From positions 1-21,150 of the IMG/VR virus record IMGVR_UViG_2648501392_000022: a DNA stretch of 21,150 nucleotides, one strand, 5' to 3'. Positions 6,001 to 12,000 of this stretch are shown piece by piece (position 1 is the first letter of the stretch; every line of letters begins with the position of its first letter). The stretch is from a virus (Duplodnaviria; Heunggongvirae; Uroviricota; Caudoviricetes). A program made the position numbers.

Positions 6001-9000
6001 ATCCAGCCAGGGGAGGTTCGGCTGTATACCCCTGTAAAGCTCTGCCCTGATTTCTTACAAACAGGCGGAGCCTTGTGTTTGCTTCGTGCCTTGCTCTGTT
6101 CTCCTTGCGGAATGAAACAGGCTCAGCGTCAAAAGTGATTTCGTATACCTCCGCATATTTCAGGGCAACCTTCCGTCTCAGTGACGGAGGCAGCCCCTGT
6201 AACTGCTGCTGAATCCACTCTTCGTCTGCCTGGCAGTACCTAGATGGCATCTCTGTCTGAACGTAATTCTGGGACATACAAGCCCTTCACCTCCCCCGTG
6301 CGCGCTAAGCTTGGATGTGGAAAAAGCTCTGGTAGGTCTGGCCGAAATTCATACGCTTGGATCTTTCCGTCGACAGCTGCAACCAATAACGGCACAAATT
6401 CTGGTGAAATCTTGTTCTTGCAGTTCAACCAATCGCAGACTGTTGACTGGGCCTTTCCGCATCGCTTGGCTAAGGCTTGCTGACTTCCAAGAATCTCAAT
6501 AGCTTTCTCTATGGCTTTATGTTTCATAATCGCATCTCCTATTGAACGCATAATAACAACAGGAAAAGCGATATTCAACGTTAAACCTAGAATATTTATC
6601 GGAAAGCCGATAAACTAGCCAAGATAGAGAGGGGAGGAAAATCGCAATGACATTTTCAGAACGACTTGATTTAGCTATGCGCAACGCAAAATTTACGCAA
6701 GGTAGGCTGGCCAAAGAAGTGGGTATGGCTCAGTCCAGTGTTAATCAACTACTTAACAAAGCCAACGGTTCCAGAAAAACAGTCGAAATAGCAAAAGTTT
6801 TGGGCGTTAACCCGGAATGGCTCGCATCGGGTGTTGGCCCAATGGAAATCGTGACCTCTGCAGACTCACACCAAATACGTAACATTTCTGAAGATTGGGT
6901 TACTGATTCGTATGTCGTGGATGTTTTAGACATCAGATATAGTTGCGGACCTGGTAGTTATAACTCTGATTTTCCTGATATTGTCAGATCTATAGCGATA
7001 GAACCAGGATACGCATCAAGAGTTTTTGGCGGCAGACCAGCATCAGCAATCAAAGCAATAAACGCCCACGGCGACAGTATGAAAGGCACAATAGACCCTG
7101 AAGACTTGGTATTTGTAGATGTATCAGTTCGCACATTTAATGGTGATGGTATATACGCCTTTACATACTCTGGAACATCGCACATCAAAAGACTTCAAAA
7201 AATCAAAGATACTCTAACGGTGATATCTGACAACCCAGCTTACAAGGATTGGGCTATCGAACCGGAAGACTTCGAACAACTTCACATTGACGGAAAAGTA
7301 ATTGTCAGTTGGCCTATGACACTACACCGTTTTGCATAAGCAAAAATCATTTAACCCGCCCACTCTTAAGTGGGCTTTTTTTTTGGGAAAAAATCGATAA
7401 ACCGATTGACAGGTGAAATCGGTAAACCTATTATCTTGACATAGGTATCGAACTCACCAAAGCAATTATAGAGGATGAGAAAAATGTCATCGTATATGGG
7501 ATTACCAACAAATCAGCACGATGCTCTTGAGAATATTCAGCTCTTAGTAGGGACTGGTGCACTACTGTATAGCAGCAATAACCCTGAGTTAATTGAACTT
7601 GCCAGCTCCATCCTGGCTGTAACTCAAAAATATAGCCTCACCGCGTCACGTTTATGCAAACAAAATTTAGCTATTAATTCCCAGAATCGGATTCGCACCC
7701 AACGCGAAACCTGCGGCTTAACAACCGCCGAACTCGCTAGGCTGCTCGATCTCGATGAAGAAATTATCATCCAGTGGGAGAGCGGAGAGTACGAACCAAC
7801 CATCAGCATGCTTATCCCTCTGGCTAATGTTCTTGGCTGTGATCCAATGTTGTTATTGACTGATGCTTATAAACAAAATCAGGAGGAAGCATAAGATGAA
7901 AATGTTCAAAGGCCTTACCAACGAACCGGAGACAGCTTTTCATCACATTGCCGTACTGCTTGAAGCGGGGTTAATCATTTCGGCTTCCGGTGATGAAGAA
8001 TGTGATGAACTTTCGGATGATATCTTTTTACTGGCACAACAATACGCCAGAAGCGCATGCGATGCATTTAAGGAGCAAAGAACATGAAAACTCCATTAAA
8101 TATTCTTGAGGAAGTGGCAGCACAAATAAAAGAGAATACATCAATGCTTGAATTTATATTTAAGAATTCGCCCGACTCAGGAGAGACAGACGATTATTTA
8201 TGTTGCCTCATTCGCTCCATGAATAAAACCTGTGAAATGGCTTACGCGTATATCGACACACTGCGCAACGAATAAAGAAAACTCAATAAACAATCCCCCA
8301 TAAAAACATAACGGTCTCTGGTCGGGAATTTCCACAACCTGAAAATGGTGGTGATGCATGAAAAACAGAAGTGCTTATAAAACCGCATTATTAATGGCTA
8401 ATGCAGGATACTGGTCAGTTGCAATACTGTTTCTCAGGAAAGCATACGGGAAATAACAAATGACACATGAACCCATTAATACATATCGTCGCCGTATAGC
8501 TGTTGCGGCACTCCATCGAATAAAACGTAAAACAGGTGGTAATCTGCTTATTGTTGACCTTCCGGATGGGAACATTACGACCATAGAAATAACTGAACAG
8601 TTTATAAACCAGTTGCTGTTACGCTTCGAAGGTATTACCCGTGGTGAATTGGGCCGGGTGGAGGGTGAAACCGAAATCCACACTGCATACCAGAATGCTA
8701 TCGGGATTAATCAACATACTGAATACCTGACTGAAACCGGAAAGTTAATTATAGACAACCTTTTTCAAGAGGTTATTGATTACGCGAAAGAAAAATATAT
8801 CAGCGGAGGAATTAACTGATGGCTAATTTATCCCCTGTATCTGTTGTGCACGAAAAAGTGCAGATCGTTATGACAATTGAAAATGGCCAAGTCACAGGTG
8901 TCTGCAAAGTCCGCGATGGCGAGCTGATTGCCAGCATGGATACATTCATACGGCTGGCAGAAAGAGCGGGGTATCAGATAACAGCACCTGCTCAGGAGGA

Positions 9001-12000
9001 AACCGGTGGCATTAACAGCAACACGCATTCCTGAGCGGATCCACCGGCAGGCATTGCAGGTCCTGTTGTTGTACCGATGCCGACGGATATTTCCGCATCG
9101 GATACAGCGCACCGGATATCTCAGTCTGAAGGTTAACCGTCGCTGGCGGCTGTTATCGAAAGACGACGGCCGGAACTGGGAAGTAATGAGTCATGAACGT
9201 TATTCGGGAGAAATAAAGAAATGATCGACAACCGCACCGCCAGCACCATTGACCAGGCATTACAGAAACATGATACACCCGTCGGCCCGTTATTTTTTGT
9301 AACACGCCACGGAAGAACAAAAAAATGCCTCACCCGAAAAACGGCAATTCGTTACCTGGCATTCTTTATGACCACCCGCGCTTTTGAACGTTCAGGATTC
9401 CGACAACGCTATCCTGACAAGCGTTTTATCTTCAACAGGAATGAGATATGGAAACGTGGAGAATCAACCACAGAGTATACCCGCGCACACCAGCGAACAA
9501 TCAGACGACTGCGCAGACTCATCGCCAGGAAACAGTATACAGAAAAATGGTTCAGAAAATATGACACATGGAGCGCCGGATATTACGAACTGATGGCAAC
9601 AAAACCATTCTGACGTAAACGAAATTAACCATGACGCAATTAAATAAGGCAAGCCGAATACATCAGGAGGACCATGAACATTTATTTCAGAATAGTTATA
9701 TCACTGGCAATTATCACATGTATTTACGGATTAATCGTTCCGGCCCTCATATCAATGAAGGATACGGTAGCAGTGATTTCTGGCTTTGCTCTGGCGTGTC
9801 TGACCCCGCCCTGCATTTATGCCATTTATAAGGGTCTTTCTTTTTCTAAGGATAAAAGATGAAAAAATTACTTTTTGCTTTAGCCCTTGTTCTGCCGACC
9901 ATTGGCCTTGTCGGTTGCGATCGCGTTGAGCCTGGTAATGTGGGCATCAAAGTAAACAAACTGGGCGACGATAAAGGCGTCGGTGAAGTGGTCGGTGTTG
10001 GGCGCTACTGGACGGGATGGAACACTGAGGTTTACATCTTCCCGACCTTTAAGCAGATGAAGACCTACGATGATCCATTCAGTTTCCAGATGAGTGACGG
10101 TACAACCATCGGCTATCACATCGGCGTGGCCTACAAAGTTGATCCATCCAAAGTTACCACAGTCTTTCAGACCTACCGCAAAGGCGTGGACGACATTACC
10201 GACACCGACCTGCGCCAGAAGATAGCCGACGCACTCAACCGACTGGCCAGCAAAATGACCACCGACAAATTTATCGACGGCGGCAAGTCTGAGCTGCTGG
10301 ATGCAGCTCTTAAAGACATTCAGGAAGAAATGACGCCCATCGGTATTCAGGTAATGAGCCTCTCATATGTGGGTAAGCCGGAGTACCCGCCTACTGTTAT
10401 CGACAGCATTAATGCCAAAGTCACGGCGAACCAGAAAACCCTGCAACGCGAGCAGGAAGTAAAACAGCGCGAAGCGGAAGCCAACATGTTGCGCGCGGAA
10501 GCTGCCGGACAGGCAGATGCGATTCGCACAAAAGCCCAGGCCGAAGCCGATGCTATTCGTTTACGCGGTGAAGCTCTGCGCCAGAACCCCGGTGTTATGG
10601 AGCTGGAAGCCATCAACAAGTGGAACGGTACACTGCCGCAATACATGACCAGCGGTGCCAACACACCATTTATTCAGGTTAAGTAATACATATGCCCGGT
10701 ATTACACGCCGGGCTGTCTGGAGATAAAAATGAATATTGTAACCATCAACAACAAACAGTTTCCGGTAATCGAATATCGCGGTCAGCGTGTTGTGACATT
10801 TGCAATAATTGATGACGTCCACCAGCGCCCGGAAGGTACCGCCCGTGCTGCGTTTAACCGCAACCGTTCTCACTTTATCGAAGGGGTGGATTTTCTTGAA
10901 ATGACTGCGGACGTAATACGTACGGAGTCACTTTCTGATGCCTTTGCCGCGCGAACTGCCAAAGGGATCATTCTTTTCGAGTCTGGTTACCTGATGTTGA
11001 CGAAGCCTTTTAACGATGCTCTTGCATGGCAGGTTCAGCGCGAACTGGTTAACAGCTATTTCCGAACTCACGCGCCGCTGACGGAAATGGAGATGATCGC
11101 TGCAATGGCCGCCGATGCCGTTCGCCAGCAGAAGCGCCTGAGTCATGTTGAAGAGAAGATCGAAACGGTCACCAAAGCTGTGGAGAACATCAAACGCGGC
11201 ACAATGCGCACCGGATATGTCGGTTACCGCCAGGTGGTAGCCAAAAGCGGAATGAGTGACGCCAAGTGTCGGAATCTGGTCAACGCCTACCACATCCCTA
11301 CCGACACGCACGAATTTATGACTCCGGACGGTCTGTTGTCTCGCAGGGCTGTCGTCGAGCTTGAGACATTTATGGCGGCGTTCCACCAAATGATGTCAGA
11401 GGCTGAACCACGCGGCACACGCTGGTATCACCCGAAGATGGGGCTTTTTCAGGTAATCGGATGGGAGGATAAAGCATGATCATCCAGTCAAAACTTATTC
11501 GCGCCGCTCTGGTGTGCGCTGCTAAAAACGACGTTCGTTATTACCTGAACGGTCTTCACATCACGCCAAAACATATTGAGGCAACCAATGGTTTCGTAGC
11601 ACTGCGCATGACTCACGGCATCCGGACGAAGAAAAACATCATTGTCCAGTTCGAAGGTGGCGTCCCGGCCAAAGCCGAAACGACAGAGCTGATTTTTAGT
11701 AAAGAGCCGATCCTGTTCATCGCGACCAGTTTCAGCGCCGGCTGTCCATTACCGGCATTAAATTGGTGGACGGTTGTTTTCCGGATTTGGAACGCATCAT
11801 TCCGAAAAAATTTGACCTCTGTACACACCCGGTGATCCAGGCGGGTTACCTGAGTTATCCAGAGAAGATGTTTGGTCGTGAGCGTAAATTTATTCCCGTC
11901 CAGTTACGTTCCTCCGGTGACGGGCAAGCGGTCAGAATTCAGTTTGATTCCATCATCAACTCAATGTATGGCAATCCTGAATTTGTTGTGATGCCTTGTC

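Follow-up and report, generated by a model that had tools for sequence, protein, structure and literature searches.

How does a lambdoid prophage run its early programme without the regulators N, cII and cIII? Prophages of the phiP27 type, which are common in E. coli, including carriers of Shiga toxin, raise this question, and it also arises in the stretch of DNA analyzed here, positions 1 to 21,150 of the IMG/VR virus record IMGVR_UViG_2648501392_000022 (21,150 nucleotides (nt), hereafter the window). We focused on the interval 7484-9613, which an earlier note had described as an early-left operon that starts with a helix-turn-helix (HTH) protein in place of an N-like antiterminator and that is devoid of recombination genes. 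This interval is very likely the promoter-proximal portion of the early-left (pL) transcription unit, under repression by cI, in an E. coli lambdoid prophage of the phiP27 type, without N/nut and without Red/Erf/RecET. Its most notable part consists of the first two open reading frames (ORFs): ORF1, a ubiquitous first early gene with an immunity-linked hairpin and a highly constrained acidic HTH, and ORF2, an adjoining free paralogue of the hairpin. The question of the early programme is the one on which ORF1 bears.

An operator-covered promoter opens the unit downstream of cI

The interval lies downstream of a repressor gene, a terminator and a promoter, with lengths given in base pairs (bp).

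6647-7339 (+): cI repressor, LexA/S24-type, directly upstream of pL and on the same strand as the pL unit
7358-7385 (+): intrinsic terminator of the cI transcript, a GC-rich 7-bp stem then a T-run (hairpin and T-run placed at 7358-7375), immediately upstream of pL
7406-7434 (+): pL-like sigma-70 promoter, TTGACA-17 nt-TATTAT, with 11/12 consensus matches
7393-7406 and 7418-7431: two 14-bp palindromic operator-like sites related to ATCGGTAAACCGAT, which border the -35 hexamer and overlap both spacer and -10

The promoter is the top-scoring promoter-like site within 6400-10000. A third operator-like copy is found between cI and cro (oR), at 6598-6611, and operator-like sites with at most 3 mismatches are matched 8 times against 1.6 expected, a number reached in 0 of 100 shuffles. 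Thus, the promoter adjoins cI, shares its orientation and has overlapping operators with a further copy at oR, in agreement with the pL-like promoter proposed in the earlier note. All genes from 7484 to 13911 lie on the + strand and the unit runs to the excisionase and integrase genes at the prophage end. The "early left" label was therefore right, as the unit follows cI and continues on the + strand to xis and int. A strong + strand terminator after int, at 13924-13941, is the only strong one downstream of pL. Between pL and this hairpin, a single + strand terminator-like site is predicted, weak and located inside the DUF4222 gene (12239-12254), on a prediction that covers intrinsic terminators only. 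Upon inactivation of cI, which carries a LexA-like S24 domain, RNA polymerase would start at 7406-7434, then transcribe eight small genes joined by translational coupling and proceed onward to xis and int.

The eight genes of the interval are listed below, with product lengths in amino acids (aa), isoelectric points (pI), expect values (E) and omega, the ratio of the nonsynonymous (dN) to the synonymous (dS) substitution rate.

7484-7894 (+): ORF1, 136 aa, pI 4.4, N-terminal helical hairpin and C-terminal XRE/Cro-C1 HTH
7896-8087 (+): ORF2, 63 aa, acidic, stand-alone paralogue of the ORF1 N-terminal hairpin
8084-8275 (+): ORF3, 63 aa, acidic, phrog_6882 (E 1e-40), omega 0.09
8358-8456 (+): 32-codon gene, MKNRSAYKTALLMANAGYWSVAILFLRKAYGK, within the 184-bp ORF3-ORF4 gap and ending 3 nt before ORF4
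8460-8819 (+): ORF4, 119 aa, phrog_1737 (E 5e-53), omega 0.19, first gene of the ORF4-5-6(-7) cassette
8819-9034 (+): ORF5, 71 aa, pI 5.1, phrog_340 (E 2e-24), its start overlapping the ORF4 stop by 1 nt and ORF6 overlapping it by 29 nt
9006-9224 (+): ORF6, 72 aa, pI 11.3, GTG start 6 nt after AGGAGG, small ParE/RelE-like protein
9221-9613 (+): ORF7, 130 aa, pI 11.0, phrog_1886 (E 3e-59)

Taken in order from ORF1 to ORF7, the junctions of the small ORFs measure +1, -4, -1, -29 and -4 nt, indicating that translational coupling is real. The claim that six to seven small coupled ORFs follow the first gene therefore stands as far as the coupling is concerned, but it had overlooked the 32-codon gene in the 184-bp gap. 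All the genes of the interval are under purifying selection between variants (omega 0.09-0.4). Minus-strand ORFs within the interval gave zero family matches, and the ARAGORN scan returned no tRNA and no transfer-messenger RNA (tmRNA). The description of these ORFs as belonging to no recognisable family did not survive the homology searches: all seven match PHROG families (E 1e-24 to 1e-59), ORF6 belongs to Pfam ParE_like and ORF2 is homologous to the N-terminal domain of ORF1. Nor is the block "unannotated", as RefSeq lists it as hypothetical proteins.

The unit lacks N and a recombination module

None of the early-left ORFs matches N, Exo, Bet, Erf, RecT or Gam in Pfam, PHROGs, NCBIfam or PADLOC, and no match to the boxA consensus was detected anywhere in the window. 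Thus, the first gene is not an N-type antiterminator acting at nut (boxA/boxB), and no general recombination module (exo/bet/gam, erf or recET) is present. Both statements of the earlier note were borne out: the HTH protein stands first with no N-family match and no boxA in the unit, and no exo/bet/erf-type gene was retrieved from Pfam, PHROGs or NCBIfam. The homology search for N-like or recombination proteins among these ORFs, which the same note had put forward as a check on itself, found none. Since no convincing intrinsic terminator interrupts the pL unit, N and nut are not needed to cross one, and N may simply be unnecessary in this unit. The late genes would use a Q-type antiterminator encoded elsewhere in the window.

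1681-2079: Q-type antiterminator, PF06530 (E 3e-52)

As to recombination, the lineage has no Red/Erf/RecET module and presumably uses host recombination.

A cryptic N-like processive antiterminator could be sought among the basic proteins of the unit, for example in ORF7, where an arginine-rich helix might be formed by the stretch RAHQRTIRRLRRLIARK of this 130-aa protein of pI 11.0. We regard this as highly improbable, since ORF7 has no N-family match, is the eighth gene of the operon and not the first, and would act in a window without any boxA consensus. Moreover, many related phages that keep the operon, e.g. phi467 and phiP27, are without ORF7, and there is no convincing internal terminator for it to overcome.

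The lone recombination-related label in the unit is PHROG phrog_3007, "RusA-like resolvase", assigned to a frameshifted gene at 11476-12044. In Pfam, this gene has no RusA domain and only a weak match to the central domain of the DNA polymerase III beta-clamp; the label looks doubtful. The gene lies on the + strand and is intact in a related locus (L003), where it encodes 189 aa.

The N-less layout is a trait of the phiP27 lineage

The segment 7350-9700 of the window is 100% identical to positions 3505168-3507518 of the E. coli E110019 chromosome and is matched in 348 of 5426 complete E. coli genomes. An IS3 lies further downstream in E110019 and is absent from the window. Using tblastn and locus retrieval, we observed that the phiP27-type order recurs in phiP27, phi467 and ASU11, in 80 IMG/VR contigs and in several phages of the Stx1a, Stx2a and Stx2d kinds. 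In this order, cI precedes the HTH gene and a set of small ORFs, after which come the genes for a 62-aa membrane protein and an SPFH lipoprotein and, at the end, xis and int. (Three-digit labels such as L003, L015, L033 and L088 designate the loci compared here, while L01-L11 are phiP27 genes.) The window has the same architecture: the gene directly after its cI encodes the conserved HTH core RTQRExCGLTTAELARLLDLDEEIIIQWESGEYEPTIS..., and small ORFs, the SPFH lipoprotein gene, xis and int come next.

In published work, N was found "in all but phage P27", cIII was absent, the cII orthologue was not identified and many key lambdoid regulatory elements could not be found in P27 (PMC3430580). The N-less early-left layout is a trait of the phiP27 lineage and not a peculiarity of the window, and the absence of N in P27 has already been published.

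ORF1 joins an immunity-linked hairpin to an almost invariant HTH

The first gene was predicted in the earlier note to encode a 136-aa protein with a C-terminal XRE-type HTH, and this was confirmed by the match of residues 70-121 to Pfam HTH_3 (PF01381, E 2.4e-10, 40.7 bits against a cutoff of 23). ORF1 also matches phrog_4836, labelled "CII-like regulator" (E 2e-50). The AlphaFold2 (AF2) model, built on a 26-sequence alignment, has a predicted local distance difference test score (pLDDT) of 81 and displays two hairpin helices, 11-29 and 34-76, that lead into a five-helix HTH. The modeled HTH superposes on the DNA-binding domain of P22 c2 with a root-mean-square deviation of 0.9 Å over 62 residues. 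For the hairpin, no structural match was obtained in the PDB or in BFVD (viral structures), where only the generic HTH domain was matched.

The ORF1 gene is present in every relative examined. We compared the N-terminal domain of ORF1 and cI in 87 loci. Over these loci, the HTH core of 51 residues hardly varies, with dN of 0.00-0.04, dS of up to 0.4-0.9 and omega of 0.02-0.2. The N-terminal ~65 residues belong to at least six types, some of them mutually unalignable. A given N-domain type always goes with a single cI type, and one cI type is common to two related N-types; the C-terminal tails assort freely. A megablast breakpoint at window position 7692, together with a dS of 0.40 between the window and L015, a locus of the same cI and the same N-type, indicates a recombination junction at the hinge of ORF1. 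The N-terminal hairpin would thus be inherited with the immunity (cI/operator) module and probably mediates oligomerization or partner binding, being joined to a strongly constrained and unusually acidic XRE-type HTH that is common to heteroimmune relatives.

From these sequence features, ORF1 is read as a two-domain, lineage-specific early regulator. Its presence in every relative examined and the unusually strong constraint on its HTH core make it the obvious candidate for this role in the lineage, and as an early regulator it could affect induction, hence toxin release.

Some ORF1 relatives (loci L058, L051 and L023; proteins P0121-P0132) carry a second acidic HTH fused at the C terminus and reach 213-245 aa, indicating that the HTH module has been duplicated within the family. 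We also considered ORF1 as an equivalent of PaaR2, and this was ruled out, as PaaR2 is the cI analogue of the prophage CP-933P and has another role and position.

ORF2 is a free copy of the ORF1 hairpin

ORF2 matches phrog_4587 (E 1.6e-33), and the same PHROG also matches residues 1-55 of ORF1 (E 1.6e-5). Comparison of ORF2 to the type A, E and C hairpins by hhalign gave probabilities of 95.5-95.8% (E 7e-9 to 2e-8). The cross-match and the hhalign scores both indicate that ORF2 is a stand-alone copy of the ORF1 hairpin. The two genes are separated by 1 nt and the Shine-Dalgarno sequence of ORF2 lies within the tail of ORF1. Very few relatives of ORF2 exist: its family counts 12 clusters in 5.8 billion proteins, and E. 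coli is the source of each of them. ORF2 may modulate ORF1 or the partner of ORF1. In all the loci compared, ORF2 and ORF3 are present or absent together. ORF3 itself was examined as a paralogue of the phiP27-type N-domain, which it resembles by eye, and was rejected on an hhalign probability of 2%.

This gene pair is reminiscent of a SinR/SinI-type switch, in which ORF1 would oligomerize via its hairpin and act via its HTH, and the hairpin-only ORF2 would form heteromers that turn ORF1 off or retarget it shortly after pL fires. The ORF1 model does consist of a hairpin and an HTH, the two genes are adjacent and coupled, and ORF2 is a small neighboring protein homologous to the presumed oligomerization domain only (hhalign 95.5-95.8%, and the PHROG cross-match). 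However, the co-variation expected of a specific heteromer was not observed, since ORF2 is essentially invariant (98-100% identical) among loci whose ORF1 bears five N-domain types, only two of them (A and E) similar to ORF2. In addition, ORF2 and ORF3 are missing from loci that have the same cI and a type A ORF1 (L015-L025), and the domain order of ORF1 is the reverse of that of SinR. Such a switch therefore appears unlikely.

Several observations weigh against our reading of the unit and of its first two genes. The near-invariance of ORF2 beside five ORF1 N-domain types counts against co-evolution of the two proteins. It is possible that ORF1 does not bind DNA, given its pI of 4.4 and the D-E-E motif at the start of its recognition helix, aligned with S31-N32-V33 of P22 c2, which we take to be the operator-contacting positions. 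A search for an ORF1 target site, as 11-mers common to at least 11 of 12 diverse loci, returned essentially only the HTH coding sequence. The linkage between N-domain and cI could be simple hitch-hiking, because ~150 bp separates the hairpin from cI. Finally, Rho-dependent terminators cannot be predicted, the lack of a convincing terminator within the unit applying to intrinsic sites, and the expression of the unit is what we infer from the sequence.

Another explanation could be that ORF1 is an adaptor and not a conventional DNA-binding regulator, which replaces part of the missing N/cII/cIII circuitry. Its hairpin would bind an immunity-specific partner (cI, Cro or the operator region), the invariant acidic HTH fold would engage a conserved host component, and the free hairpin of ORF2 would compete for the partner of the ORF1 hairpin, possibly including that of co-resident heteroimmune prophages. 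We consider this proposal quite improbable, below the SinR/SinI-type switch, and retain ORF1 as the candidate lineage-specific early regulator.

ORF5 and ORF6 as a possible toxin-antitoxin pair

In related loci, ORF4-5-6(-7) is present or absent as a block, from which ORF7 is sometimes missing. ORF4 has 42 representatives in 1.84 billion proteins and no informative fusions. The ORF7 family is widespread in Enterobacteriaceae prophages, with 191 clusters, all unnamed; the AF2 model of ORF7 has a pLDDT of 65.7 and gave no fold match at E below 0.6 (best PDB E 0.67). Searches of ORF4, ORF5, ORF6 and ORF7 against PDB sequences returned no meaningful match.

ORF6 matches PF24732 ParE_like (E 3e-17, 62.7 bits against a cutoff of 24.4), is named "ParE family toxin-like protein" in RefSeq and evolves with an omega of 0.23-0.30. 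An H-E-R-Y motif is conserved at its C terminus. No canonical ParE, RelE or HigB Pfam match was found for it, and no PDB sequence match. Homologues of ORF6 occur in temperate phages and in Escherichia phage Sortsne (L088, 2498-2719), a wastewater isolate on E. coli K-12, in which the upstream gene is unrelated to ORF5. ORF5 is positionally antitoxin-like, and ORF5-like genes are found in nearly all the related loci, ORF6-less ones included.

These features raise the possibility that ORF5 and ORF6 form a type II toxin-antitoxin pair (ParDE/RelBE-like) that stabilizes the prophage or aborts infection by other phages. The match of ORF6 to ParE_like goes along with a small acidic gene lying immediately upstream and overlapping the putative toxin gene by 29 nt, with the acidic-then-basic succession of such pairs (pI 5.1 for ORF5 and 11.3 for ORF6). 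ORF5 lies upstream of ORF6 in 35 of the 35 related loci that carry ORF6, a Klebsiella phage homologue of ORF6 is annotated as a HigB-type mRNA interferase, and a ParE module has a precedent in a lambdoid immunity region, PaaR2-PaaA2-ParE2 (PMC8630535). However, ORF6 lacks a canonical ParE/RelE match in Pfam and a toxin match in the PDB, its 72 aa are short for the ParE/RelE fold, and no DNA-binding domain is recognizable in ORF5 with Pfam. The two genes are not inherited as a pair either, as ~50 loci have an ORF5-like gene without ORF6 and Sortsne has an ORF6 homologue behind an unrelated gene. We thus hold the toxin-antitoxin assignment as tentative and doubtful.

The ParE_like family of ORF6 also occurs in phages isolated from wastewater, beside differing upstream genes, which is unexpected for a classical addiction toxin.

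A missed membrane peptide gene and the anti-defence reading

The ORF of the 32-codon gene is conserved in 11 gap variants, with changes that are mostly synonymous or conservative. Compared to L033, it shows 7 synonymous vs 4 nonsynonymous differences (omega 0.12). This pattern indicates that 8358-8456 evolves like coding sequence. The gene has no PHROG or Pfam match and is not annotated in RefSeq; its product looks like a small basic membrane peptide. A DicF-like or other structured RNA was also considered for the ORF3-ORF4 gap and rejected: the Rfam search (E at most 1) was empty, the fold z-score was +1.0, and the conserved part of the gap is the 32-codon ORF. On the opposite strand, a terminator-like hairpin lies inside the gene, at 8406-8383. 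A type I toxin/antisense arrangement at 8358-8456 is conceivable; no antisense promoter was found there.

The earlier note had suggested that the block may hold anti-defence or host-takeover functions. According to this proposal, the interval would mainly encode effectors of these kinds, expressed immediately after induction or infection. Lambdoid phages do place genes of this sort in their early-left operon, as lambda does with gam, ral and kil, and the genes of the interval are small, modular and swapped as cassettes. One of them encodes the small membrane peptide, the ORF6 family extends to the wastewater isolate Sortsne, and the acidic HTH of ORF1 could target a conserved host protein. However, scans of Pfam, PHROGs, NCBIfam and PADLOC revealed no homology to characterized anti-defence or takeover proteins, the PADLOC matches being confined to the generic HTH, and the PHROG category label is "unknown" for ORF2-7. 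The functional leads in the block would be limited to the ParE/RelE-like small protein and the small membrane peptide. An effector block is thus possible but rather unlikely. ORF3, the 32-aa membrane peptide and ORF4-ORF7 would represent mobile accessory early genes. Apart from its first gene, the block is an ordinary set of such genes, and seeing it this way guards against over-interpretation.

The remainder of the unit and of the prophage

The pL transcription unit continues beyond the interval, and its remainder is listed here with other features of the window.

9674-13941 (+): rest of the pL transcription unit, with the 62-aa membrane protein, the SPFH lipoprotein, an ORF6N protein, the frameshifted clamp-like gene, DUF4222, xis, int and the terminator
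12569-12778 (+): xis, phrog_2917
12733-13911 (+): int, PF00589 and Arm domain
6243-6521: YdaS-type Cro
5969-6277 (-): gene at the cII position, 102 aa, phrog_852
3897-5555 (-): helicase, replication gene
2927-3895 (-): toprim, replication gene

The gene order is minus-strand replication genes, the gene at the cII position, Cro and cI, then the long + strand unit that ends with xis and int. The 102-aa gene at the cII position has no HTH and belongs to no known family, which agrees with the published lack of a cII orthologue in P27.

The gene of the 62-aa membrane protein overlaps that of a 275-aa SPFH/Band 7 lipoprotein (9674-10686, +), which has weak HflK/HflC similarity. This pair is kept in most relatives, and a putative FtsH-modulating role is conceivable for it, the phage being without cIII. 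Beyond int lie two minus-strand genes, phrog_3307 and phrog_2594, within 13953-15443, and a weak partial tmRNA-like match at 15352-15443 (E 6e-4), where ARAGORN detected no tmRNA. The two genes may thus be cargo, located between int and an attachment site of the ssrA type. In the late region, two prophage small RNAs with full-length Rfam matches are placed back to back, AgvB (96.5 bits, 676-737, +) and STnc100 (144.7 bits, 738-928, -).

Comparison with known systems

The closest known systems are the early-left region of the Stx2e phage phiP27 (L11 cI, L10 HTH protein, L09-L03, L02 xis and L01 int) and those of phi467, ASU11 and the Stx1/Stx2 phages of non-O157 Shiga-toxin-producing E. coli. 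The window shares with this group a LexA-type cI, a protein of ~138 aa that contains the same HTH core, small ORFs, an ORF5-like gene, the 62-aa membrane protein with the SPFH lipoprotein, xis and int, and like them it is without N, cII, cIII and recombination genes. The window differs from phiP27 in its immunity type, with a cI that is 34% identical to L11 and an ORF1 N-domain of type A where phiP27 has type B, and it carries the ORF2-ORF3 and ORF4-ORF7 cassettes that phiP27 is without.

The pL operon of lambda comprises N, ral, sieB, cIII, kil, gam, bet, exo, xis and int. The unit of the window resembles it in position and orientation relative to cI, in the operators that cover the promoter and are shared with oR, in its small accessory early genes and in its xis-int end. 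In contrast to lambda, it has no N, nut, cIII or gam/bet/exo, its first gene encodes an HTH protein, and it has no convincing internal intrinsic terminators.

In the SinR/SinI system of Bacillus subtilis, an HTH regulator is paired with a small antagonist that is homologous to the oligomerization domain of the regulator. The window likewise joins an XRE-type HTH to a helical module, here a putative oligomerization module, and has a neighboring small gene for this module only. The domain order is however reversed, ORF2 and the ORF1 hairpin do not covary, and the sequence relation is limited to the generic HTH fold.

Finally, the window resembles the PaaR2-PaaA2-ParE2 system of the cryptic prophage CP-933P (PMC8630535) in that a ParE-family gene lies near a lambdoid immunity switch with a YdaS-type Cro, and both have functionally uncharacterized genes downstream of pL. 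In CP-933P, the toxin-antitoxin genes are co-transcribed with the cI analogue PaaR2, whereas the ParE-like gene of the window is located in the pL operon, 1.6 kilobases from the promoter. Moreover, ORF6 belongs to Pfam ParE_like and not to the canonical ParE family, and ORF1, unlike PaaR2, is not a cI analogue.

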